NCBI GenBank assembly: GCA_947632415.1
Contig: CANRPB010000003.1
Location: forward strand, 1 to 32,000
Length of the DNA: 32,000 nt
Reading direction: 5' to 3'
Origin: an uncultured Bacilli bacterium
GTDB lineage: Bacteria; Bacillota_I; Bacilli_A; RF39; UBA660
In this document: positions 2,077 to 28,742 of the stretch, piece by piece
Layout of the letters: every line of letters starts with the position of its first letter
Position numbering within the stretch: the stretch's first letter is position 1
The notes under the pieces: model-generated
Told to the model about the DNA's origin: nothing
Database searches by the model: none
The model's input: only the letters and a program-made list of their open reading frames with translations
Program-made: the position numbers and the translations under genes

Positions 2077-4290
2077 ATGTTTAGAAAAAATTATCCTTGG
2101 CTAAATAGCCCTTGGGTAAATAATATCAATGAACAAAATGAACGACAAAACTTCCTATCTTTAATTGATAATTTCGTTAATCAAAAGCAATATATAAAAA
2201 TTACTTTACTTGATTGGCAAGAAAATGGTCTTAAAGAAATAGAAGGAGAATTAACTTCTGGTACATTAACTAAAGATGGTTCTTCTAGTGTTCGTTGCAC
2301 AGGTACTTTATCTACCTCTGTAAGTGGTACAGCATATTCTGTAGATGATGCGAATATGGACTTTGCAATAAATAAAAAAATATTTATTGAAATAGGTATT
2401 CAAAATAAAACTCCATATTACCCTAATTATCCAATTATATATTTCCCGCAAGGGGTATTTTTTATTTCTACTTTTAATATCGCATCTAGCGCTACTGGGA
2501 GTGTTAATATATCTTTACAATTAAAAGATAAAATGGCTGGTTTAAATGGCGATGTAGGTGGGGTGTTTCCTGCCACTACTATTTTAGATGAAATGGATAC
2601 TCAATTACCAGATGGCAGTTATGCTACTCAAAAAGTATTAGTTCTCAATATTATTAATGAAGTAGTAAATCATATCGGGGGAGAATTATTAAGTAATATT
2701 GTAATTGAAGATGTTCCTCCACGTATCCAACGCGTAATGCAATGGAACGGAGAAAACCCTTTATGGATGCGAGAACAAGGTAATATTACAACTGGTATAT
2801 ATTACGATGTATCAGTAGAAACACCGGCAGATCCAGAAGAATGGGTTCAATATCGTCGAGGAGATGATGTTGGATATATTTTTGACGATTTTTATTATAC
2901 TGATGAATTAGTTGCAGCTCCTGGAGAAAGTGTTACTTCTATTCTTGATAAATTAGTTGAATATCTAGGCAATTTTGAATATTTTTATGATGAATTTGGA
3001 GTATTCCATTTTAGAGAAATCAAAAACTATATGAATACTACACAAGCATCTATTGTAGAAATGGCATATAAACAATATGATTATTTAGTAGATATTACAA
3101 CTGGTAAAAGTGTATTTAATTTTAGTGATGATAAAAATTTAATTAATATTACAGCGAATCCGCAATATGGCAATATTAAAAATGATTTTGTTGTACAAGG
3201 ATTGCGGAAAGGTACTAATTCTGATATTAGCTATCCTGTTACTTACCATTTAGCTATTGATTATAAACCAAGAGTAGGAAACACTTATAGAGATTTATTT
3301 ATTTATAAATCTCCTACTGATGGTTTAATTAAAGCTATTTTCCCATTACACGTAGATAAACTGCCAGAAGTAGGTAATTTTAATATTTTTTATATGCTTG
3401 AAAATGATACATCACAATGTTGGTTCTGGGCAGAAAATAACGAGTATATTCCAATAGAACCAATAAAATATTATTCTCGTAATGAAATGGATGAAGGATA
3501 CGTAACTAAAGATTGGCGTACAGAGATTTATTTGCGGGGCTTATTGGCTCGTAATAACGGAACTGATGCTTCTCAATATTATACAAGATTAACTAATAAT
3601 ATAGAAAATAATACTGGTATTGCTTATCCTTGGATTGATAATTTATTTAATATAACGAAGCATGAAAAAATAGATGTAGATTTTTATTATGAAGAACTAC
3701 AAGCTTTTTGGCCTGAAATATATGATTTAGAAAAACAACAATTCTGGGCAGAAGCAGAAGATAAAAGTTTATCTCATACTGCTCTTACCCAAGGTAATTA
3801 TTTTTTAGATTTTATTGATCCTTCTACATCTGGTATGGGTAAGTTTGCGGTTAATGCTATAGGTCGTCGTACTCAAGTAATTTCAAATGATAAAATTAAT
3901 TGTTTATTTGAACCAGTATTTCCTGATATTAATTTTATTAATATTGATGAAGATAATGCGGAAGAACTTCGCAATGAATGTATTAGAGTAGGTAAGCCTT
4001 TCTCGCAAATACATGGAGAAATATTTTATGCATTTGCGACTGGTGGGTATCATAATGCAGCATTTGATGAAATTAAATATCAATTATATGTTCATACGAA
4101 TTATGCAACCACTCTTTCTTTAATAGCACTTCCCGCGTATTATCTTGAGCCAAATAGCCGTGTTACTATTAATGATAAATCTACTAATACATATGGGGAT
4201 TATATGATTAGTACTATTACCTTACCTCTTGGAGCGGGTAATACTATGTCAGTTGCAGCAAGTGAGTTAAATATGGACAGATATTTTTAA
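2077..4290 (+). CDS. virion structural protein (tail/baseplate block), function unassigned
   Basis: 737-codon ORF. ATG 2077 is preceded by taggagg (2064-2070). No motif recognised. Confidence 0.6.
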   Translation: MFRKNYPWLNSPWVNNINEQNERQNFLSLIDNFVNQKQYIKITLLDWQENGLKEIEGELTSGTLTKDGSSSVRCTGTLSTSVSGTAYSVDDANMDFAINKKIFIEIGIQNKTPYYPNYPIIYFPQGVFFISTFNIASSATGSVNISLQLKDKMAGLNGDVGGVFPATTILDEMDTQLPDGSYATQKVLVLNIINEVVNHIGGELLSNIVIEDVPPRIQRVMQWNGENPLWMREQGNITTGIYYDVSVETPADPEEWVQYRRGDDVGYIFDDFYYTDELVAAPGESVTSILDKLVEYLGNFEYFYDEFGVFHFREIKNYMNTTQASIVEMAYKQYDYLVDITTGKSVFNFSDDKNLINITANPQYGNIKNDFVVQGLRKGTNSDISYPVTYHLAIDYKPRVGNTYRDLFIYKSPTDGLIKAIFPLHVDKLPEVGNFNIFYMLENDTSQCWFWAENNEYIPIEPIKYYSRNEMDEGYVTKDWRTEIYLRGLLARNNGTDASQYYTRLTNNIENNTGIAYPWIDNLFNITKHEKIDVDFYYEELQAFWPEIYDLEKQQFWAEAEDKSLSHTALTQGNYFLDFIDPSTSGMGKFAVNAIGRRTQVISNDKINCLFEPVFPDINFINIDEDNAEELRNECIRVGKPFSQIHGEIFYAFATGGYHNAAFDEIKYQLYVHTNYATTLSLIALPAYYLEPNSRVTINDKSTNTYGDYMISTITLPLGAGNTMSVAASELNMDRYF

Positions 4291-4373
4291 AATATTTGGG
4301 TATTTTATTAAAATTTATATCTTGTATTTTTTATATATTAATGAGGATTTTATGAGGTATAAGGAGGTTATTA

Positions 4374-5315
4374 ATGGCATTAACATTAGGCCAATATCGT
4401 TTTAGCGGTAGAGGCGCTACGTCAGAAATGACTCCTGTCCTTAGTTATAAGCCAGTTAGCGTTTCAACTGGCTCTTCTACTGATAATGCTTCTTTTTATG
4501 ATGTTCAAATTTCTCCTAATGAGGGACAATTTGTTCAAGATCAAGACTATTACTTACGTATAGCTATTCCAAGAGATATGAACTATACCATGAGTTTTGA
4601 TTTACAACTTACTAAAGTTGAAGGTAGTTCTGAAGAAGTTTATCAATTTATTAAAAATATTACTTTGGAACGCGGCGGTACAGGAGATAATGTTTATAAA
4701 ATTGTATTATTTGAAAATGCCGATGGTGTTATAGATGTACAAATTCCATTACCCTATGTCAAGAATAATTCGAGTACCCGCAATAAAATATATTATGATG
4801 CAGAAAATGATAAATATTACATCGGTTTAGGTGGGACAGATTATCAATTAACCGATAAATTTAATGCTATGTCAGTTCTCGCTTCTTGGATCGTAGAACT
4901 TGATGATAATTATGGTGTTTTTGAAATGGTATTTAGACCTATTGATATAGGCTTTACACATATCCATTTGCGGATGGTACGTACTGCGGAAGATTACAAT
5001 ATTCAAAGAGTAAATGAAGATATGCAAACAGAGTTTGGTCGCAAATTAGATATATCAAAAATTAGATGTGAACTTTATCAATTAATTAATTTAGTTGATA
5101 CTCTTTCACCTATCGGAATACTTGAAAGAATCGGTATTTGGTCGCATCCTGGACTACTAATGAGTATTAATGGTGAAGAAATTAGAGTAACTGCGAGTGG
5201 CTTTTATGAATTAGATGCGATACCTATTACTTCTCTTGGTATTGTTGCTAAAGATAATGATTATACTGATTTCTTTACTATTGATTATGAATATGATGCC
5301 GAGACAGAAGGATAG
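4374..5315 (+). CDS. virion structural protein, function unassigned
   Basis: 313-codon ORF. ATG preceded by aaggagg. It follows an 83-nt intergenic gap (4291-4373). Confidence 0.6.
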   Translation: MALTLGQYRFSGRGATSEMTPVLSYKPVSVSTGSSTDNASFYDVQISPNEGQFVQDQDYYLRIAIPRDMNYTMSFDLQLTKVEGSSEEVYQFIKNITLERGGTGDNVYKIVLFENADGVIDVQIPLPYVKNNSSTRNKIYYDAENDKYYIGLGGTDYQLTDKFNAMSVLASWIVELDDNYGVFEMVFRPIDIGFTHIHLRMVRTAEDYNIQRVNEDMQTEFGRKLDISKIRCELYQLINLVDTLSPIGILERIGIWSHPGLLMSINGEEIRVTASGFYELDAIPITSLGIVAKDNDYTDFFTIDYEYDAETEG

Positions 5316-7883: not shown

Positions 7884-8897
7884 GTGACTAAGGGTAATCC
7901 AAATGATGAGTCATTGCGAGAATCCGTACAAATAAATATATACGATGATAATGCTCAAAAACTTAAACCTTTGTATATCGCCCCTGATGCTACAGACCAA
8001 ATTCGTGGTGATGTATATTTAACAGATACAATAAATAATGAATTAGATGCTACTACTGGAGTTACAGCTATTACTCCAAAAGCAGTATCTGACACAGCTA
8101 TAGCTGATTTAGTTAAAGATGCAAAACTTGCAGCCCAAGCTGCTCAAGAAGCTGCTCAAGCTGCTAAAGATATATCTGATACTATTGGATCAACAGTTAA
8201 AGCTGAAGTAGCAGCTTTTATGAAAGATCTAATTATTGATATTGAACATGGCGGTACTAGTGCTAATAATATAGAGCAAGCAAGAACTAATTTGGGGTTA
8301 GGTACTATTGCTACATTAAATACTCCACTTGCTATTGAATATGGAGGTACTAATGCTATTACCGCTCCAGCTGCAAGAGCTAATTTAGGTCTTGGCACTA
8401 TTGCAACACTTAATAGTCCTCTCCCTGTTACCAATGGTGGTACTGGTGCTAATATTGCTAAGGCTGCTATTCATAATCTTGGAGGTATATATGCAGGTGG
8501 TGCCTTAGATTATGTTGCTGTAGGTGCTGATCTGAATACAGCTCCATATATCAACTTCGGTCAGTGGTCTAAGAATGCTAATAATACCACCATAAAAAAT
8601 GGACCTGCAGGAGTTGAGGGTGAATGGTGGATGCTCTACTGTCTTCAGGCTTATGGAGATGGTAATGCTAGATTCCAAGTTATCATCACTCTTAAAAGCC
8701 GTATGTTCATACGTCATATTACGAGTGCAGGAGATCCTGGTATCTGGGGTGGATGGAATGAGTTCTATAACTCGGTATCTTCACCTGCAGTTCCTATAAC
8801 TAAAGGTGGTACTGGAGCTACAGCAGTTGCTGCTGCATTGAATAATTTGGAAATTACACCTATTACTAATGCTGAAATAGATGCAATGTTTGTATAA
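7884..8897 (+). CDS. tail fibre protein, paralogue A
   Basis: GTG start after aaagggg. The N-terminal ~70 aa (KGNPNDES..YIAPDATDQIRGDVYLTD..TGVTAITPKAV) are paralogous to the N-terminus of 11942..13309. Ala/Gln-rich coiled-coil stretch. Several copies of a GGT(G/S/N)..A..NLGLGTIATLN motif typical of phage tail-fibre repeats. Confidence 0.75.
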   Translation: MTKGNPNDESLRESVQINIYDDNAQKLKPLYIAPDATDQIRGDVYLTDTINNELDATTGVTAITPKAVSDTAIADLVKDAKLAAQAAQEAAQAAKDISDTIGSTVKAEVAAFMKDLIIDIEHGGTSANNIEQARTNLGLGTIATLNTPLAIEYGGTNAITAPAARANLGLGTIATLNSPLPVTNGGTGANIAKAAIHNLGGIYAGGALDYVAVGADLNTAPYINFGQWSKNANNTTIKNGPAGVEGEWWMLYCLQAYGDGNARFQVIITLKSRMFIRHITSAGDPGIWGGWNEFYNSVSSPAVPITKGGTGATAVAAALNNLEITPITNAEIDAMFV

Positions 8898-8922: not shown

Positions 8923-10527
8923 ATGGACAGTGTCCTTACTAAACCGGGGACAATTCATTTGGTTGAAAAAATTAAAAATAAATTAGCTCCTATACAAAAA
9001 TTATTATATTTACAATCTAAAATATATTTTAATGAAAAGACTCAAAGATATGAGGGTATTGGAGAATGGCTTAATAGTCGTAGGGATGGTTTGATATATG
9101 GTGTAAAAATTCCTAAGTATAGCTTTTCTACAACAACAACTGCAACTAAAATAGGTGCTAACGCAAATTTAATATTAGAACCTTCTACAGAGACTAGTGC
9201 TGGTAGAAATGATTATGAAAATATTGTATTATTTGAATGTATAAGATGTAATGGTGGAGTTGACGCAGATGGCATGCCATATGTAACTGCTATTGAAGGG
9301 TTAGATGGAAGATTTGATCCAATTAAAAATAATACATATATCATAACACCAGTATATTATAGAAAAATAACTTCAGACACGCAATATAGCACCTTTGAAT
9401 ATACTGATACTCCAACTACTGGTTTTACTGCTTGTTATGGAGCATATACAGCGACAAATGTATTGCGGCCTTTCATTTTACGAGCCTGTTATTTAGATTC
9501 AGACGGCAAGTGTAGTTCTAAATCTGGGACTATTCCTGGAACTTATAGAAGTCCTACTTCTATTGCTCACTCTCTTAATTATGATTTAACTAATAGTAAA
9601 AATAGACAAGATGGTTTAACATTTTTAACTTATGGGGATATTTGTTATCAAGAAGATTTTATGGAGCTTATGCTTGGAGTAAAAGCTCCACGAAGTCAAG
9701 TTGTTGGATGTTGTAGTTATAATTATCAATATAATTTAGCTGCGGCAGAAACAAATGTTAAACGTATTATACTTACAGATGCACAAGCTGCATTTTTTGA
9801 AATTGGCTCTACTGTATCAGTGGGCAATGAAACTGTAACTAATAAAGATCGTAATAATATTGCGAGCCATGCTATTGCGAGTTCTGTGAAAATTATTTCT
9901 AAAACGTCTCTTGGAAATGGTAATACTGCACTTAATTTAAATTTATCTAGTAATATAACAACTAAAACGAATTATTTTGTTTCTTCTATGCCGTGGTATA
10001 ATGGTACTTGTGATAAAATTCAAGGGACTTATGGTGCTCGCACTACTGCTGCATTAAAAAATAGTAAAGAACCTTTCAGATTTCAAAATTGTGAATGGAA
10101 TTTGGGAGTTTGGGAAGTTTTTTGTAATTATATGGGCATCTGCTCAACTGATGGTACAAATGATACTTATGAATATTATTTAGCACCTGATATATCAAAA
10201 GTAACTACTTCAGATGGTCAAACTGGGTGGGTTAAAATGACACATATTACAGTAGATACTAAAAATGCGAAATATATTAAAGATTATGAAGTTGAAAAAG
10301 GTGCTCGAATCCCCTCTGCTTGGAGTGGAACTGCTACTACTGGTTATATGAGTGGCTGTTGGCTATTTGGATCGGCTGGTTCCCATGAAATCCTGGCCGG
10401 TGGGGACTTGCGCGCTGGTGCTCTGGCTGGTGTTGGTGCATTCGATGCGGACTATGCCACGGGGTCTGCGTATTGGTCCTTTGGGGGCCGCTCATCTACC
10501 ATCGGGCATTCCGCGCCAGCGGAATAG
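8923..10527 (+). CDS. DGR variable (target) protein, probable receptor-binding fibre/tip protein
   Basis: 534-codon ORF behind aaaggag. Its last ~45 codons contain the VR. The VR peptide AGGDLRAGALAGVGAFDADYATGSAYWSFGGR matches the TR-encoded SGGNLNNGALAGVGAFNANNATGNANWNIGGR, a pattern typical of C-type-lectin-fold DGR targets. Confidence 0.85.
   Translation: MDSVLTKPGTIHLVEKIKNKLAPIQKLLYLQSKIYFNEKTQRYEGIGEWLNSRRDGLIYGVKIPKYSFSTTTTATKIGANANLILEPSTETSAGRNDYENIVLFECIRCNGGVDADGMPYVTAIEGLDGRFDPIKNNTYIITPVYYRKITSDTQYSTFEYTDTPTTGFTACYGAYTATNVLRPFILRACYLDSDGKCSSKSGTIPGTYRSPTSIAHSLNYDLTNSKNRQDGLTFLTYGDICYQEDFMELMLGVKAPRSQVVGCCSYNYQYNLAAAETNVKRIILTDAQAAFFEIGSTVSVGNETVTNKDRNNIASHAIASSVKIISKTSLGNGNTALNLNLSSNITTKTNYFVSSMPWYNGTCDKIQGTYGARTTAALKNSKEPFRFQNCEWNLGVWEVFCNYMGICSTDGTNDTYEYYLAPDISKVTTSDGQTGWVKMTHITVDTKNAKYIKDYEVEKGARIPSAWSGTATTGYMSGCWLFGSAGSHEILAGGDLRAGALAGVGAFDADYATGSAYWSFGGRSSTIGHSAPAE
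10397..10500 (+). repeat. DGR variable repeat (VR)
   Basis: Hand alignment to 10604-10707 at a constant offset of 207 nt with no gaps. There are 17 mismatches, 14 of them at TR adenines. The other three are 10425, 10493 and 10499, the last two at the 3' end where IMH/IMH* differences are expected. Confidence 0.9.
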
Positions 10528-10534
10528 GGGTGAA

Positions 10535-10566
10535 TTGGCCGAAGGCCAAGAGGGGTGCTAACCCCT
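10535..10566 (+). promoter_or_regulatory. two adjacent GC-rich hairpins downstream of VR (candidate DGR target-recognition structure)
   Basis: ttggcc-gaa-ggccaa (10535-10549) and aggggt-gcta-acccct (10551-10566) are both perfect 6-bp stems. They lie just 3' of the target-gene stop (10525-10527). Confidence 0.5.
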
Positions 10567-10603
10567 ATGGGGAGTTTGACCGTCTCGGTTTCTTTTCCGC
10601 GCT

Positions 10604-10707
10604 CCGGTGGGAACTTGAACAATGGTGCTCTTGCTGGTGTTGGTGCATTCAATGCGAACAATGCCACGGGGAATGCGAATTGGAACATTGGGGGCCGCTT
10701 ATCTAGC
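10604..10707 (+). repeat. DGR template repeat (TR)
   Basis: Invariant partner of the VR. In the VR reading frame it holds nine AAY codons plus ATT. It lies in non-coding space 126 nt upstream of the RT start. Confidence 0.9.
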
Positions 10708-10832
10708 ATAAATTTAAAGGTCAAATTCACTGTCTTTGAATGTAGACAGCTTAGCCATGCTTAACTAAGTGAAATAAGAGGACTGCCCGACTCCCTAGTA
10801 CAGATAATATGGAACGGGAGTTACTTCTCTAG
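10604..10832 (+). ncRNA. DGR template RNA (TR plus TR-RT spacer)
   Basis: Inferred from DGR architecture: TR followed by a 125-nt spacer immediately upstream of the RT gene. Transcript ends are not determinable from the sequence. Confidence 0.45.
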
Positions 10833-11906
10833 ATGAAAACGTATTGTAAAAATATTGACATCACAAGCTATAAACATTTAAATGATAGCTTCGATAAATT
10901 TATAGAAAAAGGATACCGCCGTAAAGGTATCAAACGTTTTTTAAAGAGGGGCAGAAAAAATATTATAAATTCTGCTAGACAGATGCTTTTAAACCATAAT
11001 TTAATTCTTAATGAAATAAATTATTTTTATAGAACTGAACCTACAACTTTAAAAACTCGTCTTATTGCACGTGAAAGTGCAATGCAACAATACTTTGATT
11101 ATATTGCAGTTGTTGCATTAAAACCTATGTTCGATGCAAAAATTGGATATCATCAATGCGCATCTATTAAAGGCAAAGGCCAAGCACATGCACAACGATA
11201 TTTAAAAAGATGGGTACGGGATTTAAATAATAAATATTATGTTAAATTAGATATACGTAAATTTTATGAATCAGTTGATACTGCAATTTTAATGTCAATG
11301 TTAGAGAAAGACGTTAAAAATAAAGATTTGTTGTGGTTAATAGAAACATTAATTAGTACGTATAAAAAAGGTTTAAATATAGGTTCTTTTCTTAGCCAAT
11401 ATTTAGCTAATTATTATTTATCAGAAGCTTATCGGTATGCAAATAATTTATATAGATATAAAAGAGATAAACGAGTTAAATTAGCTAAACATATTTTAGT
11501 TTATATGGATGATTGGATTTTTATAGGTAGTAATAAAACTAATATAAAAAATGCAGTAAAACAAACAATTAATTTTATTGAGCAACAATTAAAATTAGAA
11601 GTAAAACCTTGGAAAATATGCCAAATAGATTCTGAACCAATAGATATGGTTGGATGGGTATTTAGACGTCAACGTACTTCGATAAGAGATACAATTTTTT
11701 TAAGAGCACGTAGAGCTTTTAAGAGAGCTGCCCGCAAACAATTTATTAATCCGCATGCAGCCGCACGTTGTATTTCATATTGGGGTTTCTTTAAATGGGC
11801 AGATAATGACTTGTTTGAACAAAATAACAATTTAAAAAAAATATTAAATGATTGTAAAAATAGTATATCACTATCTGCTATAGAAAAAAATCTTAACGTA
11901 ATCTAA
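10833..11906 (+). CDS. DGR reverse transcriptase
   Basis: 357 aa. YMDD catalytic box (ILVYMDDWIFIG) and the DGR-type IGSFLSQYLANYYL motif (SQ..AN). Adjacent to the TR/VR pair. Confidence 0.9.
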   Translation: MKTYCKNIDITSYKHLNDSFDKFIEKGYRRKGIKRFLKRGRKNIINSARQMLLNHNLILNEINYFYRTEPTTLKTRLIARESAMQQYFDYIAVVALKPMFDAKIGYHQCASIKGKGQAHAQRYLKRWVRDLNNKYYVKLDIRKFYESVDTAILMSMLEKDVKNKDLLWLIETLISTYKKGLNIGSFLSQYLANYYLSEAYRYANNLYRYKRDKRVKLAKHILVYMDDWIFIGSNKTNIKNAVKQTINFIEQQLKLEVKPWKICQIDSEPIDMVGWVFRRQRTSIRDTIFLRARRAFKRAARKQFINPHAAARCISYWGFFKWADNDLFEQNNNLKKILNDCKNSISLSAIEKNLNVI

Positions 11907-11941
11907 TAATGAGTAGAGATAAAAGGAGGTTTAACTTAGAT

Positions 11942-13309
11942 ATGGCGAAGGGTAATCCTAATGACGAATCTATGAAATTAAATTTCATACCTAAAGTCTG
12001 GGATGATGAAGCAAAAGAATTTAAACCATTCTATATTGCTCCTGACTCTACTGATAAAGTTCGTGGGGACGTTTATTTATCTGATGATTTTAGTGAAAGC
12101 GATGCGGCAACTGGTGTAACAGCTGCTACTCCTAAATTATTGTCTACATTACGGGATGCTTATATTGATTCTGCGACCGAATCCGCGGAAGCTGCTAAAA
12201 CTGCGGCTGAAGCTGCTCAGGCCGCCGCAGAATCTGCAAAAAATATCGCGGATAATTCAATTCAAAAAAATGACCCTAGCGATCAAAAAATACAAGGTAG
12301 TATTATACCGACTGCCCCAGGGACTCAAAGTTTAGGAACCGAAGAGTTTCCTTGGGGCGATATATATGGTACATTAAAAGGAAATGCGGATAGTGCTACT
12401 GAAGCAGAACATGCTAAATCTGCGGATAAAGCTACGACTGCTGAGAAAGCAACAACAGCTGATACTGCCACTAAACTAGGCGCAGCTACTATAGGTGGAG
12501 TCGCACAAGGTATATATCTTAATCTTGGGGTTCCAACTGCGAAAAATGCTAATATAGGATCTGCATATTTACCTAGTTATTTAAAAGGCGGGATAGATAC
12601 TGTTTGTACTTCGCCTTCACTTTTGGTAAATTTAGGTGTGGGAACTGCTGCTAATATTTTTGCGCAAGATCCTAGACCTGGAGTTACTGGTGTTTTACCT
12701 ATAGCTAATGGTGGTACTGGTAAAACTGATGCAGCAGGAGCTCGTACTGCTTTAGGTTTAGGCAGTTTAGCTACGTATAATTTACCTACTGGAATTCCAG
12801 AAACTATAAATAACTTATTCATAAATGGAGCAGGACAATGGGTAGAAGTAAAAGGTGGGGGTATTGGAGGAGATATTCTTGCTGGAGAAAAATTGTCTAC
12901 TAATTCTGCTAATAGTTTAGCTACAGATAACTCAGCTTCTTCGGGAAAAGCAATAACTATTCCTTCTAAGGATAATAAAGAACTTATAAGAAAAACGTTT
13001 GAAGTTCCTTTCGGAAGTTATTCTATTATAGTAAGAGCAAAAGTCACTGCTAATACTAGTACTAGTACTATTTTTCAAATTATTGCTTATGCTGGTACAA
13101 CTTTGTTAAAATCAGTAGACATAAAGCCTAATTATTTTCTTGCTGCTAATACTTGGCGTCCTATTGGAATAGGTGTTGATTTTGCGGCAACAGCAGCATG
13201 TAATTTAGTTATAGTTATAAAATCTGTAGGACTAACTGAGAACATTACAGCTTATATAGATAGTTTAACTGTTATGCTTGCTCCAGTTGCAATTAATATG
13301 ATAGGATAG
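11942..13309 (+). CDS. tail fibre protein, paralogue B
   Basis: ATG 11942 sits behind aaaaggagg (11921-11929). The ORF-track start at 11909 lacks an RBS. The N-terminus MAKGNPNDES..YIAPDSTDKVRGDVYLSD..TGVTAATPKLL is paralogous to 7884..8897. Ala/Glu coiled-coil stretch and an IANGGTGKTDAAGARTALGLGSLATYN fibre motif. Confidence 0.75.
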   Translation: MAKGNPNDESMKLNFIPKVWDDEAKEFKPFYIAPDSTDKVRGDVYLSDDFSESDAATGVTAATPKLLSTLRDAYIDSATESAEAAKTAAEAAQAAAESAKNIADNSIQKNDPSDQKIQGSIIPTAPGTQSLGTEEFPWGDIYGTLKGNADSATEAEHAKSADKATTAEKATTADTATKLGAATIGGVAQGIYLNLGVPTAKNANIGSAYLPSYLKGGIDTVCTSPSLLVNLGVGTAANIFAQDPRPGVTGVLPIANGGTGKTDAAGARTALGLGSLATYNLPTGIPETINNLFINGAGQWVEVKGGGIGGDILAGEKLSTNSANSLATDNSASSGKAITIPSKDNKELIRKTFEVPFGSYSIIVRAKVTANTSTSTIFQIIAYAGTTLLKSVDIKPNYFLAANTWRPIGIGVDFAATAACNLVIVIKSVGLTENITAYIDSLTVMLAPVAINMIG

Positions 13310-13313
13310 CATT

Positions 13314-14642
13314 ATGGATAATTATATTAGAAAAGAGGACGTAGCTGAATTAAAAGCTAGATTAGTAGCTGTATATGATAAAAGAGATGGATGGGGTTCA
13401 TCTGAAGTTATTAAGCATAAATTACTTAATAATAGTGCGAATATTACAAAAGATGGATATATTATTGGTGAAGATTATGCAGCACTTGATAATGCTATTT
13501 TAGATTTTAATGATGCTTTTGTTAATAATGTAATATACACTAATACTATACAATCTGTATATCCTGCAAGAGAAGTACAAGAAAATATAGCAATTTCAAA
13601 ATTAGAAAAACATTCTGAAAGTGACCACGGCTGTCGCGGAGCTTGTATAGGTCTTTGTACTGGTACTTGCGATAATACTGTAGCTGGCAAAACAACTTCT
13701 AGTTCAGGTTGCAGTAGTTGTGAGGGTGGATGCTATAATACTTGTGAAAGCGCTTGCGGGAGTAATTGTATAAATGGCTGTACTGGTAGTTCTGGCTCAC
13801 AAGGTAGTAATGGCTGTTCTGGATGTTCAGGTGGATGTTCAGCATGTACTGGCGGTTGTAGTTCTGGCTGCGGGTCTGGATGTACCAATGGATGTATCGG
13901 TTGCTCAGGTGGATGTCAAGGATGTTCATACTGTACTGCGTCCTGTCAAAGTAACTGTACTGGTACTTGTTATAACTCTTGTACTTCACAATGTGGGCAA
14001 AGTTGTTCTGGGGATTGTAACGCGCAATGTACTAATTGTTTTAATATGTGCAGTGGGTGTACTGGTACATGCGATGGATCATGTAGAACTGGTAGCGGAA
14101 GTAGTTGTGGCTCAGGATCTACAAACTGTACTTCAAATTGCGGATCTTGTCGATCTTGTGTAACTGTGTGTGGAAGTGGCTGTAGTGGTAGGTGTACGGG
14201 TTGTTCAAATACGTGTACCCAGACATGTTCTGAGGGAAGTGCCGGAATAGCAGGCGGTTGTGCACTCTGTGCAGGTGGTTGTAAGTCTGGCTGTGGTAAT
14301 GGATGCACAGGAGGTTGTGGTTCTGGTTGCTCAACAGGTTGTACAGGTTATACTAGCTCTAGAGGAACTAGTGGTGGTTGTTCAAGCTGTTTAGGCGGAT
14401 GTTCAGCATGTACTGGTAGTTGTAGTTCTGGCTGCGGATCTGGGTGCACGGGGAGCTGTTCTCAAAATTGTGTTAATGAGTGTGGACAAACATGTGGGAC
14501 AGGATGTACTAATCAATGCAATAACGTATGTACTTCTTGTTCATTAGGATGCTATAGTGGTTGTAGTCAGTCATGTTCATCAAATTGTGATAGCACTTGT
14601 TTTTCAAATTGTTCAAATACCTGTTTTGGACAATCAAAATAA
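13314..14642 (+). CDS. cysteine-repeat (C-x3-C / C-x2-C) protein, putative radical SAM substrate
   Basis: 442 aa. The first ~105 aa are of ordinary composition. The next ~335 aa hold about 77 Cys (my count), spaced almost only C-x3-C or C-x2-C with G/S/T/N/Q between them, in blocks split by Cys-free G/S/T linkers. Starts 5 nt after the fibre-gene stop. Confidence 0.8.
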   Translation: MDNYIRKEDVAELKARLVAVYDKRDGWGSSEVIKHKLLNNSANITKDGYIIGEDYAALDNAILDFNDAFVNNVIYTNTIQSVYPAREVQENIAISKLEKHSESDHGCRGACIGLCTGTCDNTVAGKTTSSSGCSSCEGGCYNTCESACGSNCINGCTGSSGSQGSNGCSGCSGGCSACTGGCSSGCGSGCTNGCIGCSGGCQGCSYCTASCQSNCTGTCYNSCTSQCGQSCSGDCNAQCTNCFNMCSGCTGTCDGSCRTGSGSSCGSGSTNCTSNCGSCRSCVTVCGSGCSGRCTGCSNTCTQTCSEGSAGIAGGCALCAGGCKSGCGNGCTGGCGSGCSTGCTGYTSSRGTSGGCSSCLGGCSACTGSCSSGCGSGCTGSCSQNCVNECGQTCGTGCTNQCNNVCTSCSLGCYSGCSQSCSSNCDSTCFSNCSNTCFGQSK

Positions 14643-14666
14643 CATAAAGAGAAAAAAGGAGATCAA

Positions 14667-15002
14667 ATGAGAAAAATAATAGTTTCATGTCCACAAGATT
14701 TAGCTTTAGAATTAGAAAAAAATTATTATGAAATAACTGTTTTACAACAATTAATTGATAGGTACATTGACAATCATCCAGAAATTGAAGACATATTTGA
14801 AACTAAAATTGGATTTAATTTATTACAACGACTTACCGAAAAACAAACTAACTATGAAACATTAAAAAATATTTTAACTAAAAATGTTATTCCAGAATAT
14901 TTGCAAAATCATAGTCTTAATTGGTCATTAGATTTTTTAAATAATGAAGTAACAATTAATATTTTATGCGATTGCGAGATCCCAGAATGCCCAAAAGAAT
15001 AA
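14667..15002 (+). CDS. small partner protein of the Cys-repeat/radical SAM cassette
   Basis: 111-aa ORF behind aaaggag, between the Cys-repeat gene and the radical SAM gene. Its 3' end overlaps the latter. Function is inferred from position only. Confidence 0.55.
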   Translation: MRKIIVSCPQDLALELEKNYYEITVLQQLIDRYIDNHPEIEDIFETKIGFNLLQRLTEKQTNYETLKNILTKNVIPEYLQNHSLNWSLDFLNNEVTINILCDCEIPECPKE

Positions 15003-16315
15003 TAGAATTTGGAGATCAAATATCGCAACTTTATCCTTCTTTTAAACCAAAAACACCAGGTAGTATTGTTAAAAATATTACTCTATGTGTAACTAATGAT
15101 TGTCAATTAAGATGCACTTATTGTTATGAACATCATAAATCTAATCAATATATGGACTTTAATACTGGAAAAAAGTTTATAGATTTAATTCTTACTGGCG
15201 ACAAAGGAATGGATCAATATGTGTCAACAGAAGATTCTAAAGGTGTTATATTAGAATTTATTGGTGGAGAACCAATGCTAGCTGTTGATCTTATTGATAA
15301 ATTACTTGATTATTTTATAGAAAAAGCGTTAGAATTAAATCATCCTTGGGCTTATTGTTGGAGAGTATCAATTAGCTCTAATGGAGTAAATTATTTTGAA
15401 CCTAAAGTTCAACAATTTTTAAAGAAATGGGATCAAGTACTAGCCTATTCAATTTCATTAGATGGCAATAAAGAATTACATGATGCTTGTCGTCATTATG
15501 CGGGAACTACTATAGGATGCTATGATGAAGCTCACGCAGCCGCATTAGATTGGATGTCAAAAGGGCATTACCTTGGTTCTAAAATGACTTACTCTCCTGA
15601 TAATATCCCCTATATGTATGACGCAATGGTTGCAATGTTAGATGATGGTTACACTGAAATTGCATCAAACCCAGCTTTTGAACCTAAATATACTATAAAC
15701 GATGCTAAATTATATTACCAACAAGGGAAAAAAATAGCTGATGAAATTTTGCGTCGTAATCTTGATATGGATAATGAATATAGTATTACTTTATTTGATG
15801 ATGGTTTATTTGGCCCAATAGCAGAAGATGATATTCAAAACTGGTGCGGCGGTACTGGTTTAATGATTGCTTGTGACTATGACGGGCTTATCTATCCTTG
15901 TTTACGGTATATGTCTATGTCTCTTGGAGATGACCAACCTCCTCTTATTTTAGGTAATGTAGATGATGGTATTTTACAAACTAAAAAAGAGCGAGATACT
16001 CTAAAATGTTTGCAATGTATAACTCGTCGTACACAATCTACTGACGAATGTTTTTATTGCCCTATTGGACGAGGTTGTGCTTGGTGTTCTGCTTGGAATT
16101 ATCAGCTCTATGGGACTGCTGATAAAAGATGTACTAATATTTGTGTTTTACATAAGGCAAGAGCACTGTTTAACTATTATTTTTGGAATAAATACTATCG
16201 TAAAACACATCAAAATAAAAGAATGAAGATATTTATTCCAGAAGAATGGGCTTTAGAAATTATTTCTAAAGATGAATGGAATGAATTACTAGAGTTAGAA
16301 AGGGTTGATAGATGA
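14966..16315 (+). CDS. radical SAM / SPASM-domain peptide-modifying enzyme (maturase)
   Basis: CQLRCTYC (CxxxCxxC) and GGEPML SAM-binding motifs. The C-terminal Cys-rich auxiliary-cluster region (CGGTGLMIACDYDGLIYPC ... CLQC ... CFYCPIGRGCAWC) resembles a SPASM domain. The start may instead be ATG 14987. Confidence 0.85.
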   Translation: MRLRDPRMPKRIIEFGDQISQLYPSFKPKTPGSIVKNITLCVTNDCQLRCTYCYEHHKSNQYMDFNTGKKFIDLILTGDKGMDQYVSTEDSKGVILEFIGGEPMLAVDLIDKLLDYFIEKALELNHPWAYCWRVSISSNGVNYFEPKVQQFLKKWDQVLAYSISLDGNKELHDACRHYAGTTIGCYDEAHAAALDWMSKGHYLGSKMTYSPDNIPYMYDAMVAMLDDGYTEIASNPAFEPKYTINDAKLYYQQGKKIADEILRRNLDMDNEYSITLFDDGLFGPIAEDDIQNWCGGTGLMIACDYDGLIYPCLRYMSMSLGDDQPPLILGNVDDGILQTKKERDTLKCLQCITRRTQSTDECFYCPIGRGCAWCSAWNYQLYGTADKRCTNICVLHKARALFNYYFWNKYYRKTHQNKRMKIFIPEEWALEIISKDEWNELLELERVDR

Positions 16316-16638: not shown

Positions 16639-16733
16639 TAAGATATAAATAAAAATATAATCTTAATAATTATAGTACTACAATTCAATGCACTCTTGGC
16701 ATTAAATTAATAGAAAATTAAAAGGAGATAAAA

Positions 16734-17079
16734 ATGAAACTTCTTGATTCAACGGGGGGGGCATTTAGTCTCTAAAATAAAAAGTTGGGTTAATTCTAGA
16801 TTAAATTTATTAGCTTGTAGACAATTGCATATTGCTCCTAACAATGATTATTCTGCTCAATTTGTAGTATATTATGCAAAAGAAGGGTACAGTACATATA
16901 AGCATGATTGTTTAATATTGACCCCTAGCTGGACAAAAAATAATATATTGCAATTAACATTTTCTCGTAGAGATGGTGGAGGCTATACTGCTGCATGGAA
17001 ATTGTCTATAGACGAAAATGGTTTTGTCAAAGGAACATATTATGATGATCCCAGCACTCCAGTATTACCAGAAAAATAA
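16734..17079 (+). CDS. polyG cassette 1 (conserved MKLLD..GG N-terminus, unique C-terminal domain), out of frame at G8
   Basis: aaggag, 6-nt spacer, then ATG 16734 gives MKLLDSTGGAFSL-stop. The long ORF (16744..17079) is in the +1 frame after the G8 tract and contains no in-frame ATG. G7 or G10 would fuse the two frames. Confidence 0.6.
16754..16761 (+). repeat. G8 homopolymer in the 5' coding end of cassette 1
   Basis: Read directly: aacGGGGGGGGcat. Confidence 0.95.
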
Positions 17080-17095
17080 GTATAGGAGGATATAT

Positions 17096-17630
17096 ATGAA
17101 ACTTTTAGATGGGGGGGGCTCGGCATATAATAAATGCTTTTACCTCTCATTTTGATGCAGGTGTCTTTAAAATCGGTAAAGAAAGCAAGATAGATGATTG
17201 TTATTTCCCAGAACGCGGATGCATGATCGCTAATGTAAAATTTCATCATGAGTTTGAGGCTCCTCCTTTTGTTTTCATACAGTCTGTTCACGGCTTTGGC
17301 GCAGGATCGAACGTGTCTACCGAGATGCCTGACTATATTACCTCTAAAGGAGAGGTCTTGCACCCTGGAGAGTTGCAATCTAATACTTTTGCTAATAACA
17401 GAGCAGCTAAACAGATGTTAGCCAACTTTATGTGCACTGTGTCAGATCATCCCGCTAAAGATGGATTTAGAGCGTATTTAAGTATGGATGATATTACATG
17501 GAGTCAGATGACTACGTTAGATGACCCTCCGCAAGAAGTCCATGGGACGTGGGGTTTGGGCTTTTCTTGGTTTGCTTTCTTACCATTTGATAAAGATTTA
17601 GCCAACATTTCAGTTTATTCTTATAAATAA
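17096..17630 (+). CDS. polyG cassette 2 (conserved N-terminus, unique C-terminal domain), out of frame at G8
   Basis: aggagg, 6-nt spacer, then ATG 17096 gives MKLLDGGGSAYNKCFYLSF-stop. The long ORF (17109..17630) is +1 relative to it. G7 gives MKLLDGGARHIINAF. ATG 17109 abuts the tract and could allow weak initiation of a form lacking the N-terminus. Confidence 0.6.
17111..17118 (+). repeat. G8 homopolymer in the 5' coding end of cassette 2
   Basis: Read directly: gatGGGGGGGGctc. Confidence 0.95.
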
Positions 17631-17646
17631 TAACTAAGGAGAAAAA

Positions 17647-18060
17647 ATGACAAAGCTATTAGATCAGGGGGGGGCAACTTATTTAATAAATAAGTTTAAT
17701 AGTTCTGGTTTACAAGAATATCAAAAGAATAAAATACATCCGTTAGATAAATTTCTTCGTAAAGCAACAAATTATACAACTTTAGATACTATAGGGAGCA
17801 ATGCTAATACTCTATATTATAACTCTAATGTATGGGGTCAAGCAGATGGCAAAAAATATATTGGTATTCCTTCATCTGTAAGAGGTCGTTTTCATTTATT
17901 AACTTTTAATAGTGGTAATAGTGGCAATGCTTTGCAAAATATATTTCAAATATTAATTTGTCTTGATCCTCCTAAAGGGTTATTCTTTAGACAAAGTTGG
18001 GATAGATGGGAAAGTTGGTATCAAGTTCCTATAACAGAAGTAACTGATGTAATAAAATAA
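17647..18060 (+). CDS. polyG cassette 3 (conserved N-terminus, unique C-terminal domain), in frame at G8
   Basis: taaggag, 5-nt spacer, then ATG 17647. MTKLLDQGGATYLINKF reads through the G8 tract in frame for 137 aa. Confidence 0.7.
   Translation: MTKLLDQGGATYLINKFNSSGLQEYQKNKIHPLDKFLRKATNYTTLDTIGSNANTLYYNSNVWGQADGKKYIGIPSSVRGRFHLLTFNSGNSGNALQNIFQILICLDPPKGLFFRQSWDRWESWYQVPITEVTDVIK
17667..17674 (+). repeat. G8 homopolymer in the 5' coding end of cassette 3
   Basis: Read directly: cagGGGGGGGGcaa. Confidence 0.95.
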
Positions 18061-18063
18061 AAA

Positions 18064-18102
<39 letters not shown>

Positions 18103-24470: not shown

Positions 24471-25366
24471 TAGCATCACCTCCTATAATAAAAGCGCTAG
24501 TTTCTAACAGTAAATCTTCTATTATTAAATTATTATAATGCCAATAAGGAATTCTAATAATTGGAATATTGTTATCAAAACAATATTGATTCTTAAATTG
24601 ATCTTTATCTTTAATTTTTTGTAAATCCATAGGAGTTCTTGCCCAAGTATTACTTTTGTAATGTTGTCGTCCGTCAAATTTAATGATATATTTATTATTA
24701 ACGTAAAAGTCAAAACGTAAAGATCTTTTAGGGTTATTGTAAAATAATTTAGGAGCATATTCTTGAATATAAGGAATATTTGCTTGATTTAATAATGTTT
24801 TAATTTTTTCTTCTCCTTTAGAAAAGGAAATACAACCACAACTAATAGTGCCATTTGTAATCAAATGACTGCCATATATATCTTTTAATTGTGCCACATT
24901 CGCATTTACAAGTATATTTCACCCCATTTATAACACGATCATTCCATGTTTGTGTTTGAGAAGGTTCGATAACTGTTAATAATCCAAATTTTTGACCAGA
25001 TAAATTATTTCTTAATTTTGTTTCCTTACATTGTGAGCTACCACAACTTTTTGTTTTTCCAGTTCTTAAATGATTTTTATAGACAGATAAAATTTTTCCA
25101 CAATTACATTGACAAATATATTTTTGGCTATTGTTTTCATCTTCTTTTAAAACCATTAATTTACCGAATCGTTTCCCTATATCATCTATTTTTTGAGCGC
25201 ACCCACAGCTTTTGGTGCGCCCTTTCCTTAGTTCTGATCCATAAATACTTTTTATAGTACCACAATCACATTGACAAATCCAGTATCCACGCTGTTTAGT
25301 ATTATCTCGTTTTAATACTGTCCATTTACCATATCTATGCCCTGTTTCATCTATTAATCTAGGCAT
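24442..25366 (-). CDS. free-standing homing-endonuclease-like gene, frameshifted
   Basis: Three repeats of G.(R/K)FG.L.V....C.C.CG....Y...L..G.(T)KSCG. The third repeat is split between ORF 24842..25366 (..KCECGTIK) and ORF 24442..24897 (DIYGSHLITNGTISCGC). One A fewer in the A4 run (plus-strand T4 at 24883-24886) joins them. The C-terminal LRFDFYV...IIKFDGRQHY resembles a Vsr/PD-(D/E)xK-like nuclease. Confidence 0.55.
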
Positions 25367-26418
25367 TAATAATCCTCTTCATTATGATCTGTCACATGAA
25401 TAAAGCGATGGAACATTTCATCAGCACGTCCTTCATTAAATGGGCTTGTTGAAATATACCCACATACCCTACGTGCAATATTCATTTTATCAAAATTGCG
25501 GTTTCCACATTGCGGGCATTCAAAATAATGTTTTCCATTTTCATCTTCATGTAAAATAATTTCACCCTCAAAACTGCATTCCATACAATTATCTAATTTA
25601 GTATTAAATTCACAATACATAATCTTATCGTACATAAACTTTAATAATTCTAAAATAATATCAAGATTATTTTGTAAATTAGTCGTTTCAATATAACTAA
25701 TACATCCGCCTGGACTAAGTTTTTGAAACTCAGCTTCTTTTTCAATCTTATCCCAAGGGGTAATAGGTTCTTCTACCCACACATGGTAGCTATTAGTCAC
25801 ATAATCTCTGTCTGTAATTCCTGGAATCACTCCAAAGCGTTCCTGCAATTTCTTAGCAAATTTATATGTGGTAGTTTCAATGGGCGTGCCGTATACTGAA
25901 TAATCTACTGGTTCTTGTTTACGCCACTCCATGCATTTATCATTTAAAAATTGTAAAGTTTTTAATGCAAATTCTCTACCTCTTGGTTGAGTATGGCTTT
26001 CTCCTACAATTATCATAGAGGTTTCATATAGTCCAACATAACCGATACTTGAAGTAAAGTGTTTTTCTGCAATTACTTGTCCTATAGTATCTTCTGCTTT
26101 TAATCTTGATAAAGCGCCATATTGCCAAAGAATAGGATTAACTTCTGCTGGAGTATCCTGCAGTCTTTCCCAACGTACTCTTTGTACATCATGACAAAGT
26201 TCTAATCGTTTTTCTAATATTTCAAAAAAGATATTTTCTAATTCCTCTTGATCTATTGGAGCTCCATCCATTCTTAAAAACATATTATTAAATTGCTCTT
26301 TTGCTGTTAATGCTGCGTCAATTAAATTAACAGTAGTTACTCCTATATTACCTCTGCCATAGAACTCTGGTTTGTTGGTCTCGGGATTGATATAGGTATC
26401 TGTAAGAAAAGATCTACA
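25366..26418 (-). CDS. nrdD: anaerobic ribonucleoside-triphosphate reductase, exon 2
   Basis: Begins CRSFLTDTY. Contains the Zn ribbon CMEC...CPQC and the glycyl-radical motif RRVCGYIS near the C-terminus. Confidence 0.85.
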   Translation of the reverse strand, partial: CRSFLTDTYINPETNKPEFYGRGNIGVTTVNLIDAALTAKEQFNNMFLRMDGAPIDQEELENIFFEILEKRLELCHDVQRVRWERLQDTPAEVNPILWQYGALSRLKAEDTIGQVIAEKHFTSSIGYVGLYETSMIIVGESHTQPRGREFALKTLQFLNDKCMEWRKQEPVDYSVYGTPIETTTYKFAKKLQERFGVIPGITDRDYVTNSYHVWVEEPITPWDKIEKEAEFQKLSPGGCISYIETTNLQNNLDIILELLKFMYDKIMYCEFNTKLDNCMECSFEGEIILHEDENGKHYFECPQCGNRNFDKMNIARRVCGYISTSPFNEGRADEMFHRFIHVTDHNEEDY

Positions 26419-27507
26419 CATATTATCCTATGTCACCATAGGTACTGACTATATCTTCTACTTTTATAAGTAGTCGTCCGCTTCGAGTTGGTGCCTATCT
26501 CCAACCCTACTCCCTTACATTCATCAGGGATAGTCGATACACTTTTATCAAAGTTTTTCTAATGTAAAATTTTTTACAGTAAAAATTTTTCCATATTTAT
26601 AGGCATCTCCACTAAATGTTTTTGTATTAACACCAAAATATTTTTCCCCAGCAGTATAATTTGGAAAATCTTTTGTTTCATTAGTAATATTATTTGTAAT
26701 TCTAACTGGTTGTGCTTTTCTATTATTTTTATATCTGGTATAATCTGTCATATATTCATCATTTTGATATGCAAAAATCCATAAACCTTTATAAGCATAT
26801 TTTGTTTTATGAGAAGCTCTTCGTGTAATAAAATTGTGGTTTTTTTCATTAAAATATTTTTGACATTCACTACAAGAATCAAAAAATAATTCTTCTTCTG
26901 TATCTATATTTTTACATTTAATTTTTGTAGCATTAGGATTTTTTCCACCTTTTTTAGACTCACTAAGTTTTTGTTTAGTAATATCCATTTCTTCTTTTAT
27001 GCGACCAGAATAACTATCTCCTCCACGAGTTACAGCATCTAAAATATTATATCCTTTATGAATTGCATCATATTTATGAATATAATAATTTTCTAATTTA
27101 TTTAATTCATCTTGATTCGTAGCAGAAGTATCTATCGCTTCAATTTTAAAATTTTCTTTACCATATTTTCTAATTGCTCTTGCAAAGTGAGTCTGTCCTG
27201 TTTTTGCATATGATAAATGAGATTTCCATCTTTCTTGAATAGTTTTAGTGGTTTGCCCAATATAAATTTTATTATTTATTAAATTTGTAATTTTATAAAC
27301 TGTAAACATTCATTATCTCCTTATTGTCGTAGTTTTTTTACCTATTATTTATAATTTTTACAATAAGAAGATTATTGAATTTTGACCATTTTTCCTTTGA
27401 TACTTAGCACGGTCTCAACTCTAAGAGTCCTAACCGTTAGCATTTACTTTAGTAAATACACCCTCTGGCGAGGTTCAAACGATTTTACATGAGCTGTAGC
27501 TTAGCTT
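26419..27507 (-). mobile_element. group I intron in nrdD carrying a homing endonuclease gene
   Basis: Exon 1 ends ..DCYPCMG and exon 2 starts CRSFL. I recall the conserved class III RNR sequence as MGCRSFL. The last exon-1 base is U and the last intron base is G. The exon-1 end AUGGGU (27513-27508) can pair with intron GCUCAU (27494-27489), including the U.G pair at the splice site. An in-frame stop follows 10 codons into the intron. Confidence 0.75.
26548..27309 (-). CDS. GIY-YIG homing endonuclease (intron-encoded)
   Basis: N-terminal VYKITNLINNKIYIGQT...ERWKSH GIY-YIG module. Lies wholly inside the nrdD intervening sequence, behind aaggag. Confidence 0.85.
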   Translation of the reverse strand: MFTVYKITNLINNKIYIGQTTKTIQERWKSHLSYAKTGQTHFARAIRKYGKENFKIEAIDTSATNQDELNKLENYYIHKYDAIHKGYNILDAVTRGGDSYSGRIKEEMDITKQKLSESKKGGKNPNATKIKCKNIDTEEELFFDSCSECQKYFNEKNHNFITRRASHKTKYAYKGLWIFAYQNDEYMTDYTRYKNNRKAQPVRITNNITNETKDFPNYTAGEKYFGVNTKTFSGDAYKYGKIFTVKNFTLEKL

Positions 27508-28683
27508 ACCCATGCACGGATAGCAATCTCCAGTCCCGTTAGGATTAATTTTCTGCTCTTTCATAACTTTTTCAGAAATATAATCGGGAACCATTCTTTT
27601 TGCGGTACATTCTGCAGCGAGCTCTGTTAAGTACCAATAAGGAGCATCTTCTGAAATATTATCTTCCTCAAGAACATAAAGTAATTTAGGAAACGCTACT
27701 GTAATATATTGTCCAGCTTCATTTTTCATACCTTGAATACGCTGCCGCAATGTTTCTTCGATAAGCATTGCAAGTTCTTCTTTATATTCTTCTGTCTCTC
27801 CTAAATACATACAAATACTAACAAAAGGAGTTTGCGCGCGTGCTACACAAAAAGAATTAATTTGATAATTTAAAGTTTGAATAGCATCTTGCACTTCTTT
27901 GCGAGTATCCTTCATTGCAAGTAGTTCAACTTGTTTAGGAGTCAAGTCTTCTTCCATATATTTTTCAAGATAACGTTCATAAGAATCCCGCACAAAAGGT
28001 GCTAAGTGAGTCAATGTAATAGTTTGTCCGCCATATTGCGCTCCGCTAACCGCCGCAATAATTTGTGAAGCAATAGTTGCGGCAGTTATAAGACGATGCG
28101 GTTTTTCAATCATAATGCCATTAATAACGGTGCCATTTTGTAACATGTCTTCTAAATTGACTAAACAACAATTAGTATACGTTCTTTCTGCACTAAAATC
28201 AATGTCATGAATATGAATTTGACCTAAATCATGCGCTTCTACTGCGGCTTTTGGAAAAATAAACTCTCTTGCTAAATCTGTGTCAATAATACCAGCGATA
28301 TAATCTCTTTGCGTGACAGCTAGTTTTGAATCTTTATTGCTATTTTCTGTACGCCAATATTCATTATCGCCGCGGATCATTTCTAAAATTTCTGCTTCAT
28401 TACGATTTTTTCTAATCAATTCTCTTTTATATCTATATCTAATATATGCTCTAGCTTCATCATAATAGCCCCATACCATAAGGGCAGTTTCTACCAAGTC
28501 TTGAATTTCTTCTACTGAAATAATAGGATTAGGCCATTGTTGAATTAAATCATCAATATCATCAAGAATTTCTTCATCATCAAATTCTTCTTCTAAGTCT
28601 TCAAAAGCCCCTGCAATAGCTACAGCAATTTTATCTAAATCATAAGGTACTAATGATTCATCTCGTTTCATAACTTGTACCAT
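27508..28683 (-). CDS. nrdD: anaerobic ribonucleoside-triphosphate reductase, exon 1
   Basis: ATG 28683 has aaggag 6 nt upstream (the ORF-track start at 28689 is a TTG). ATP-cone-like N-terminus VMKRDESLVPYDLDKIAVAI. The ORF-track tail KLSYSSCKIV is intron read-through. Confidence 0.85.
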
Positions 28684-28742
28684 AGGCAACTCCTTTTTTT
28701 TAGATTATATATAAGTATATAAAATTTAAAATGTATAAATTA

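Follow-up and report, generated by a model that had tools for sequence, protein, structure and literature searches.

Three tandem late genes of an uncultured phage share an N-terminal module and a G8 tract and are likely polyG contingency loci

The DNA analyzed here, a window of 32 kb (32.5% GC; positions 1 to 32,000 of the 54.9-kb NCBI contig CANRPB010000003.1), belongs to an uncultured phage and covers its late region together with part of its replication region. Three tandem late genes in this window, hereafter cassettes 1 to 3, open with a similar peptide and carry, a few codons after the start, a run of exactly 8 G (G8). The combined results of our analysis make it rather likely that these genes are simple-sequence contingency loci, in which polyG tracts act as DNA-level switches that gate alternative and probably virion-associated proteins.

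The three tracts lie at 16754-16761, 17111-17118, and 17667-17674, and no other G or C run in the 32 kb is longer than 5 nt; the window otherwise has nine G5 runs and no C run of at least 5 nt. Compared to the 0.02 runs of G8 or longer expected from an order-0 model at the GC content of the window, 3 were observed. Each tract spans Gly-Gly codons, 6-10 codons downstream of an ATG led by a Shine-Dalgarno (SD) sequence. Across 19 window open reading frames (ORFs), GGG makes up 12% of Gly codons, and GGGGGG encodes none of the 46 other Gly-Gly dicodons. The three tracts are thus non-random, as a preliminary description of this DNA had proposed when it argued for a selected homopolymer at Gly-Gly; what that description said of tract positions, ribosome-binding sites, frames, early stops, and uniqueness also holds on re-examination.

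Cassette 1 (16722..17079, + strand) has its SD, AAGGAG, at 16722-16727, its ATG at 16734, and its tract at 16754-16761. The zero frame reads MKLLDSTGGAFSL, 13 codons that end at the stop at 16773-16775, while the long ORF runs in the +1 frame to 17079, with a predicted ON product MKLLDSTGG(G)HLVSKIK... of 114/115 amino acids (aa). Cassette 2 (17084..17630, +) is built likewise, with the SD AGGAGG at 17084-17089, the ATG at 17096, and the tract at 17111-17118; its zero frame reads MKLLDGGGSAYNKCFYLSF (19 codons, stop at 17153-17155), and its +1 frame, open to 17630, would give MKLLDGG(G)ARHIINAFT... of 177/178 aa. Cassette 3 (17636..18060, +) has the SD AAGGAG at 17636-17641, the ATG at 17647, and the tract at 17667-17674, and its ORF (17647-18060) is in frame at G8, encoding 137 aa that begin MTKLLDQGGATYLINKFN. 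With G8 in all three tracts, cassette 3 alone is in frame, and a length of G7 or G10 puts cassettes 1 and 2 in frame as well. The long +1-frame ORFs of these two genes are uninterrupted over 111 and 173 codons, in a genome that is AT-rich. Spurious ORFs of at least 100 aa are rare in the window: we counted four, of which three lie in a GC-rich gene of Cys repeats and one runs antisense to cassette 2. The antisense ORF, 112 aa at 17040-17378 (-), is probably a by-product of the local GC content of 41-43%. The GC content of cassette 2 contrasts with the 28-32% of its neighbors, a difference in composition that suggests separate origins.

The same reading frames could be started elsewhere. In this alternative, TTG 16744 and ATG 17109, both in the +1 frame, are the true starts of cassettes 1 and 2, and the SD-led MKLLD mini-ORFs are leader peptides. 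Gene callers do report products of 111 aa and 173 aa, and ATG 17109 sits at the start of tract 2. However, the SD sequences of all three cassettes stand 5-6 nt before the MKLLD-type ATGs, as against 16-19 nt before the alternative starts, and in cassette 3, as in a naturally occurring in-frame allele of cassette 1 described below, the MKLLD...GG module leads directly into the protein body. We therefore regard alternative initiation as very unlikely.

To compare tract lengths, we used ENA metagenome contigs assembled with SPAdes from other samples and recovered by exact-protein look-ups; the contigs of the same phage are 99.8-100% identical to the window. Those that inform on the tracts are L001 (ERZ27249300), L002 (ERZ27249295), L003 (ERZ27249068), and L035 (ERZ27249285), and the contigs carrying variants have a k-mer coverage of about 1.5-3. 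Tract 1 is 8 nt long in the window, L001, and L003, 9 nt in L002, and 7 nt in L035, where it is GGGGAGG; among these five assemblies it is the sole differing site over about 470 bp, with three length states. The L035 allele reads ACG GGG AGG CAT, interrupted and in frame, with flanks as in the window. A 114-aa protein called from this contig (P0129), which we found among the proteins clustered at 90% with that of cassette 1, begins MKLLDSTGRHLVSKIK and is the predicted full-length cassette 1 product. The three assemblies that cover tract 2 (window, L002, and L003) all give G8. Tract 3 is seen in the window only; the other contigs end at 17662 and resume after 18067-18098, a (TA)16 repeat. This repeat is intergenic, between cassette 3 and the next gene, and may itself vary in length; two further contigs (L004 and L017) begin just after it. 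The comparison of tract lengths in metagenomes that the preliminary description had called for thus points, at this low coverage, to variation at tract 1 (7, 8, and 9 nt), with a constant tract 2 and a single observation of tract 3. Contingency loci are recognized by an uninterrupted homopolymer of about 7 nt or more within a reading frame or promoter, far above what composition predicts, and by a gain or loss of 1 nt that toggles between full length and an early stop. The three tracts show the first property, and the frame arithmetic together with the 7-nt allele of L035 shows the second.

The same assemblies bear on the quality of the sequence. Homopolymers are error-prone, and the preliminary description had recognized that its reading would fall if the G8 lengths were sequencing or assembly artefacts and all three genes were in frame at the true lengths. 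This is hardly credible, since SPAdes assemblies of different samples repeat G8 at tract 1 (L001 and L003) and at tract 2 (L002 and L003). The OFF state of cassettes 1 and 2 is reproducible across independent assemblies, which largely excludes a homopolymer assembly error.

The similarity among the cassettes is confined to their N-termini. We scored pairwise similarity against shuffled sequences, 500 for comparisons among the cassettes and 2000 for comparisons with other genes. The first ~20 residues are alike in all three (pairwise z 4.5-9.6; 0/500 shuffles reach the score), whereas the C-terminal parts show no similarity (z <1), in agreement with the shared N-terminus and diverged C-terminal parts of the preliminary description. 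The consensus of the module is M(T)KLLD-x0-2-GG-x-(H/Y)(L/I)(V/I)-x-(K/A)(I/F)(K/N/T). It extends beyond the array to a 534-aa tail protein of the same phage, the target of a diversity-generating retroelement (DGR), which opens with the same motif, MDSVLTKPGTIHLVEKIKNKL (z about 4.9-5.9 against cassettes 1 and 3; 0-3/2000 shuffles). A late-region gene of a related phage, L014:19847, opens with it too, as MSIELLDKNGLSHLVKKIK; its scores are z 7.2-9.7 against cassettes 1 and 3 (0/2000 shuffles) and, against cassette 2, z 3.0 at G7 (29/2000) and z 6.4 at G10 (3/2000). Lower scores were obtained with the N-terminal 23 residues of 29 other ORFs of the window, except in the comparison with cassette 2 read at G7. 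The motif was not seen in MT836575, a homologue of the DGR target. Outside the array the related motif has a single Gly (NGLS, PGTI), which argues that the G run was built on the Gly position of the anchoring module and not inherited with it. With G10, the spacing is restored to 5 residues, as in cassette 3, in the 534-aa protein, and in L014:19847, and the alignment improves. Both G7 and G10 are possible ON lengths, the natural in-frame allele being one of 7 nt.

A second N-terminal module (GNPNDES...KPLYIAPD(A/S)TD..RGDVYL(T/S)D) is shared by two fiber paralogues of the window, at 7884-8897 and 11909-13309, and is also present on several fibers of the relatives L008 and L014. Since this second module recurs on the fiber paralogues, at least two recurring N-terminal modules are found on multiple fiber-like proteins in this phage group.

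Behind the module, the cassettes differ from everything they were compared with. Cassettes 3 and 1 retrieved themselves alone in a word-indexed search of 5.8 billion proteins, a full HMMER search of 1.84 billion cluster representatives gave no homologue of cassette 2, and sequence searches of Pfam, PHROGs, and the PDB gave no match to any cassette. All three are, by these searches, ORFans. Single-sequence AlphaFold2 models were unusable (predicted local distance difference test 37 for cassette 3 and 32 for cassette 2), and the cassette proteins have no transmembrane segment. The cassettes are also exchangeable between strains, because L035 has another gene at the cassette 2 site: it keeps the SD and the ATGAA of cassette 2 and continues into a different gene, MNFTGIVKDIID... 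(L035:470-506), so that the recombination breakpoint is the start of cassette 2. A 33-mer of this replacement gene is absent from the window, IMG/VR, and the JGI metagenomes. The modular arrangement of the preliminary description is supported by this replacement.

The isolation and dispensability of these genes could also be taken as signs of decay, that is, cassettes 1 and 2 would be recently frameshifted paralogues near loss and the G runs mere mutational hot spots, with no adaptive switching. In the window, as in most of the assemblies, both genes are OFF; relatives lack the array, one strain has replaced cassette 2, and no homologues of the cassettes were detected. Against this stand three G8 runs at homologous codons of diverged genes, in a genome that otherwise leaves GGGGGG unused for Gly-Gly, indicating that the tract is maintained. 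The long ORFs are free of further lesions, an in-frame cassette 1 allele exists in nature, and the single Gly of the related motifs implies a run that was built up. Decay is, on this evidence, unlikely.

A further possibility accepts the tracts as functional but not as switches. Programmed recoding at a fixed G8, by RNA polymerase slippage or a +1 ribosomal frameshift on GGG-GGG, would set a stoichiometry, with the full-length products of cassettes 1 and 2 made as a small and constant fraction beside a fully expressed cassette 3. In its favor, all tracts of the window are exactly 8 nt, both out-of-frame genes need the identical +1 shift, and G8 is the state of tract 2 in every assembly and of tract 1 in most; GGG is a rare Gly codon, such that a P-site tRNA-Gly could re-pair in the +1 frame. 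However, RNA structure downstream of the tracts is no stronger than in shuffled controls (z +0.95, +0.31, and -0.79), no Rfam element was found, and the zero-frame products are peptides of 13 and 19 residues rather than functional short forms. The length of tract 1 is not fixed, and such slippage would also cost cassette 3 part of its product. Moreover, A/T runs, rather than runs of G, are where efficient transcriptional slippage has been documented in bacteria. A programmed frameshift is marked by a slippery run of conserved length, a stimulatory element, and a pair of functional products; this combination was not found at the cassettes, and we judge recoding improbable, with perhaps a small chance of being correct.

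Under phase variation, the reading that we favor, slipped-strand mispairing during replication of the phage DNA would gain or lose G residues at each tract, and each cassette would be toggled independently. The 8/8/8 state of the window would yield the cassette 3 product only; cassettes 1 and 2 would need tracts of 7 or 10 nt for expression and otherwise stop at 13 and 19 codons. A phage population would in this way split into sub-lineages with different subsets of the proteins, up to 8 combinations, and the interrupted GGGGAGG of 7 nt would represent a "locked-ON" allele of cassette 1. We infer that such switching would be reversible and of high frequency within one population.

Several points weigh against this reading. 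Only small numbers of reads underlie the G9 and GGGGAGG calls (k-mer coverage 1.5-2.7), and the length variation is known from assemblies of different samples, not from reads. Tract 2 is invariant (8, 8, and 8) and tract 3 has been seen once. The equal length of all three tracts and the same shift needed by both OFF genes are what fixed-ratio recoding predicts likewise. The cassette products have no homologue, family, or confident fold, and a hidden Markov model of wider and looser N-termini of the GLxxLxxKIK type, built from relatives, gave the cassettes no significant score.

The cassette products may be virion components, such as distal tail or fiber accessory proteins, that dock through the shared N-terminus. 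This role is suggested by the presence of the motif on the DGR target and on L014:19847, by the variable slot that holds a 586-aa fiber in one relative, and by the soluble character of proteins that have no transmembrane segment. A function in receptor binding is conceivable from the position of the genes and the shared N-terminal motif. Of the stochastic switching between alternative receptor-binding proteins put forward in the preliminary description, the non-random tracts, the polymorphism of tract 1, the in-frame 7-nt allele, and the modularity speak for switching, but the receptor-binding identity did not gain support from proteins that are ORFans with no usable fold. A broader proposal, which we advance tentatively and hold to be somewhat doubtful, is that polyG-gated distal-tail or receptor-binding modules are combined on one anchor, with the tract built de novo on the Gly position of that anchor, while a DGR acts on a fourth anchor-bearing protein. 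Host-range bet-hedging would then have two tiers, a discrete ON/OFF choice among strain-exchangeable cassettes and a continuous mutagenesis of the main adhesin.

The array stands downstream of tail and baseplate-like genes and of the two fiber paralogues. The DGR comprises the target gene (8923..10527, +; 534 aa) with the variable repeat (VR) at its 3′ end (10397-10502), a template repeat (TR) at 10604-10709 that is 84% identical to the VR, and a reverse transcriptase at 10833-11906 (PHROG 1423; Pfam RVT_1). Mismatches between TR and VR fall at TR adenines in 14 of 17 cases. The DGR (8923-11906) looks complete, and no Avd-like ORF was seen between the target and the reverse transcriptase. No repeat of the TR/VR type touches the cassettes, which are not DGR targets; switching of the cassettes by the DGR was rejected for lack of supporting features, the target being the ORF at 8923-10527. 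We also rejected invertase-driven switching (Gin/Cin or shufflon type), having found only AT-rich, low-complexity inverted matches and no recombinase among the annotated ORFs.

Between the fibers and the array, a Cys/Gly/Ser-rich repeat protein (13314-14642; 442 aa) is followed by an ORF of 111 aa (14667-15002) and a radical SAM enzyme (14966-16315; 449 aa). A 50%-identical homologue of the enzyme is named "radical SAM peptide maturase (CXXX-repeat target family)" by one source, and the homologues of the CXXX-repeat target in relatives match PF27846. The trio lies within the tail-fiber block (13314-16315), and its conservation across a large number of phage contigs (2528 homologues with E ≤ 1e-30) suggests a post-translationally cross-linked virion protein. 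Downstream of the array are a protein with a transmembrane segment, a coiled-coil protein, candidate holins, proposed as such from their small, hydrophobic sequences, and an endolysin with amidase and ricin-lectin domains, whose one match, to Adlercreutzia, is uninformative on the host.

The phage is of a low-GC gut type. Its DnaE-like polymerase is ~42% identical to polymerases of SPbeta-like phages; for a baseplate-like protein and for the DGR target, the only matches are to Enterococcus phages and to unannotated phage contigs from human feces. Neither the same phage nor a similar array was found by megablast against INPHARED (50,697 phage records), or in IMG/VR or the JGI metagenomes. A degenerate DNA pattern for MKLLD-polyG gave 7 unrelated matches in IMG/VR, at or below the chance level estimated by hand, and was discarded. 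The phages closest to this one in their radical SAM gene (60-66% identity) lack a polyG array; the corresponding slot, flanked by homologues of the 108-aa gene and the 178-aa gene, holds a 586-aa Gp10_C fiber in one relative and is empty in others. In one related phage, an in-frame C9 run lies in a second CXXX-repeat target gene, itself a tail-region gene (L011:4098-4106 and L013:4133-4141; ORF 3962-4747, ...RTTPPLPL...); the radical SAM gene of that phage is 65% identical, and its contigs are in the ENA ERZ2724xxxx range. Except for this C9, the loci of the closer relatives have no long G or C run, and 247 kb of more distant gut-phage relatives contain no G or C run of at least 7 nt.

In the replication region, the gene for the anaerobic ribonucleotide reductase NrdD is split on the - strand into an N-terminal part (27475-28689) and a C-terminal part (25366-26421). 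An ORF for a homing endonuclease of the GIY-YIG type (26548-27309) lies between the two parts, which suggests that an intron interrupts the gene or that the gene is split; at threshold, no match to an Rfam intron was found in this region.

PolyG and other simple-sequence contingency switching is already known in phages, and the array constitutes no new category. In Campylobacter phages of the genus Fletchervirus, hypermutable polyG tracts are described as giving phase-variable expression of receptor-binding proteins (Sorensen 2021, Cell Rep 35:109214, as cited in PMC10579305). In both systems, polyG runs are encoded by the phage within genes for structure or host recognition, each genome has several tracts, and a frameshift sets the ON/OFF state. 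They differ in that we found no sequence relationship (no megablast match in the 50,697 phage records, and self matches only for the cassettes), in the low-GC gut-type character of this phage, with relatives among Enterococcus, SPbeta-like, and uncultured fecal phages, and in the arrangement, which is here one of three tandem paralogous cassettes with the tract at the same N-terminal codons and with a conjectured receptor-binding identity. T2, T4, and other phages carry contingency loci in which polymerase slippage at homopolymers gives reversible frameshifts and bet-hedging (Gomez, Barrick & Waters, bioRxiv 10.1101/2025.10.21.683753). These resemble the cassettes in having homopolymer runs in phage genes and reversible frameshifts made by slippage, but the runs are mostly poly(A), scattered in single genes (agt and rIIA) and tied to anti-defense trade-offs, with no array of cassettes behind a common N-terminus. 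The preliminary description, which had cited the Campylobacter phages, was roughly right on precedent, but the 2025 preprint adds contingency loci in T-even and other phages.

Among bacteria, 5′ homopolymers serve as reversible switches of gene inactivation, and in the Firmicute Listeria the poly(A) tract of inlA gives an 8-aa product (Orsi et al. 2010, PMC2831843). As in the cassettes, such tracts lie within the first few codons, the OFF state costs a short peptide, and interrupted tracts are locked alleles; unlike them, they are cellular and not viral, and the Listeria tract is poly(A). The contingency loci of Campylobacter, Neisseria, and Haemophilus are related bacterial cases. The invertible systems of Mu and P1 (Gin/Cin) and the shufflon also choose stochastically among alternative C-terminal or host-range modules behind a constant part, but the present array has no invertase or meaningful inverted repeats, and a choice made by frameshift would permit any ON combination. 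The DGR of Bordetella phage BPP-1, which acts on Mtd, can also be compared, in that the DGR of this phage acts on a 534-aa protein with the motif of the cassettes and both mechanisms would diversify host range; the cassettes themselves have no TR/VR repeat.

What is new is the occurrence in an uncultured low-GC gut-type lineage unrelated to Fletchervirus, the three tandem, strain-exchangeable cassettes whose tracts occupy one and the same site in a common module, and the DGR on a protein with the same module in the same genome. For the annotation of metagenomes, gene callers give such genes a wrong start or split them (111, 84, and 173 aa, where the full-length products have 114 and 177 aa), and assemblies are interrupted at the tracts. 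Homopolymer phase variation, a classic strategy of bacteria, has so far been shown experimentally in phages essentially for those of Campylobacter and, in a recent preprint, for T-even phages. If our reading is true, polyG contingency switching of virion genes arose independently in a low-GC gut phage lineage, where each gene in a tandem set of alternative cassettes with a common anchor would have its own gate, and a single phage would combine polyG switching with a DGR.

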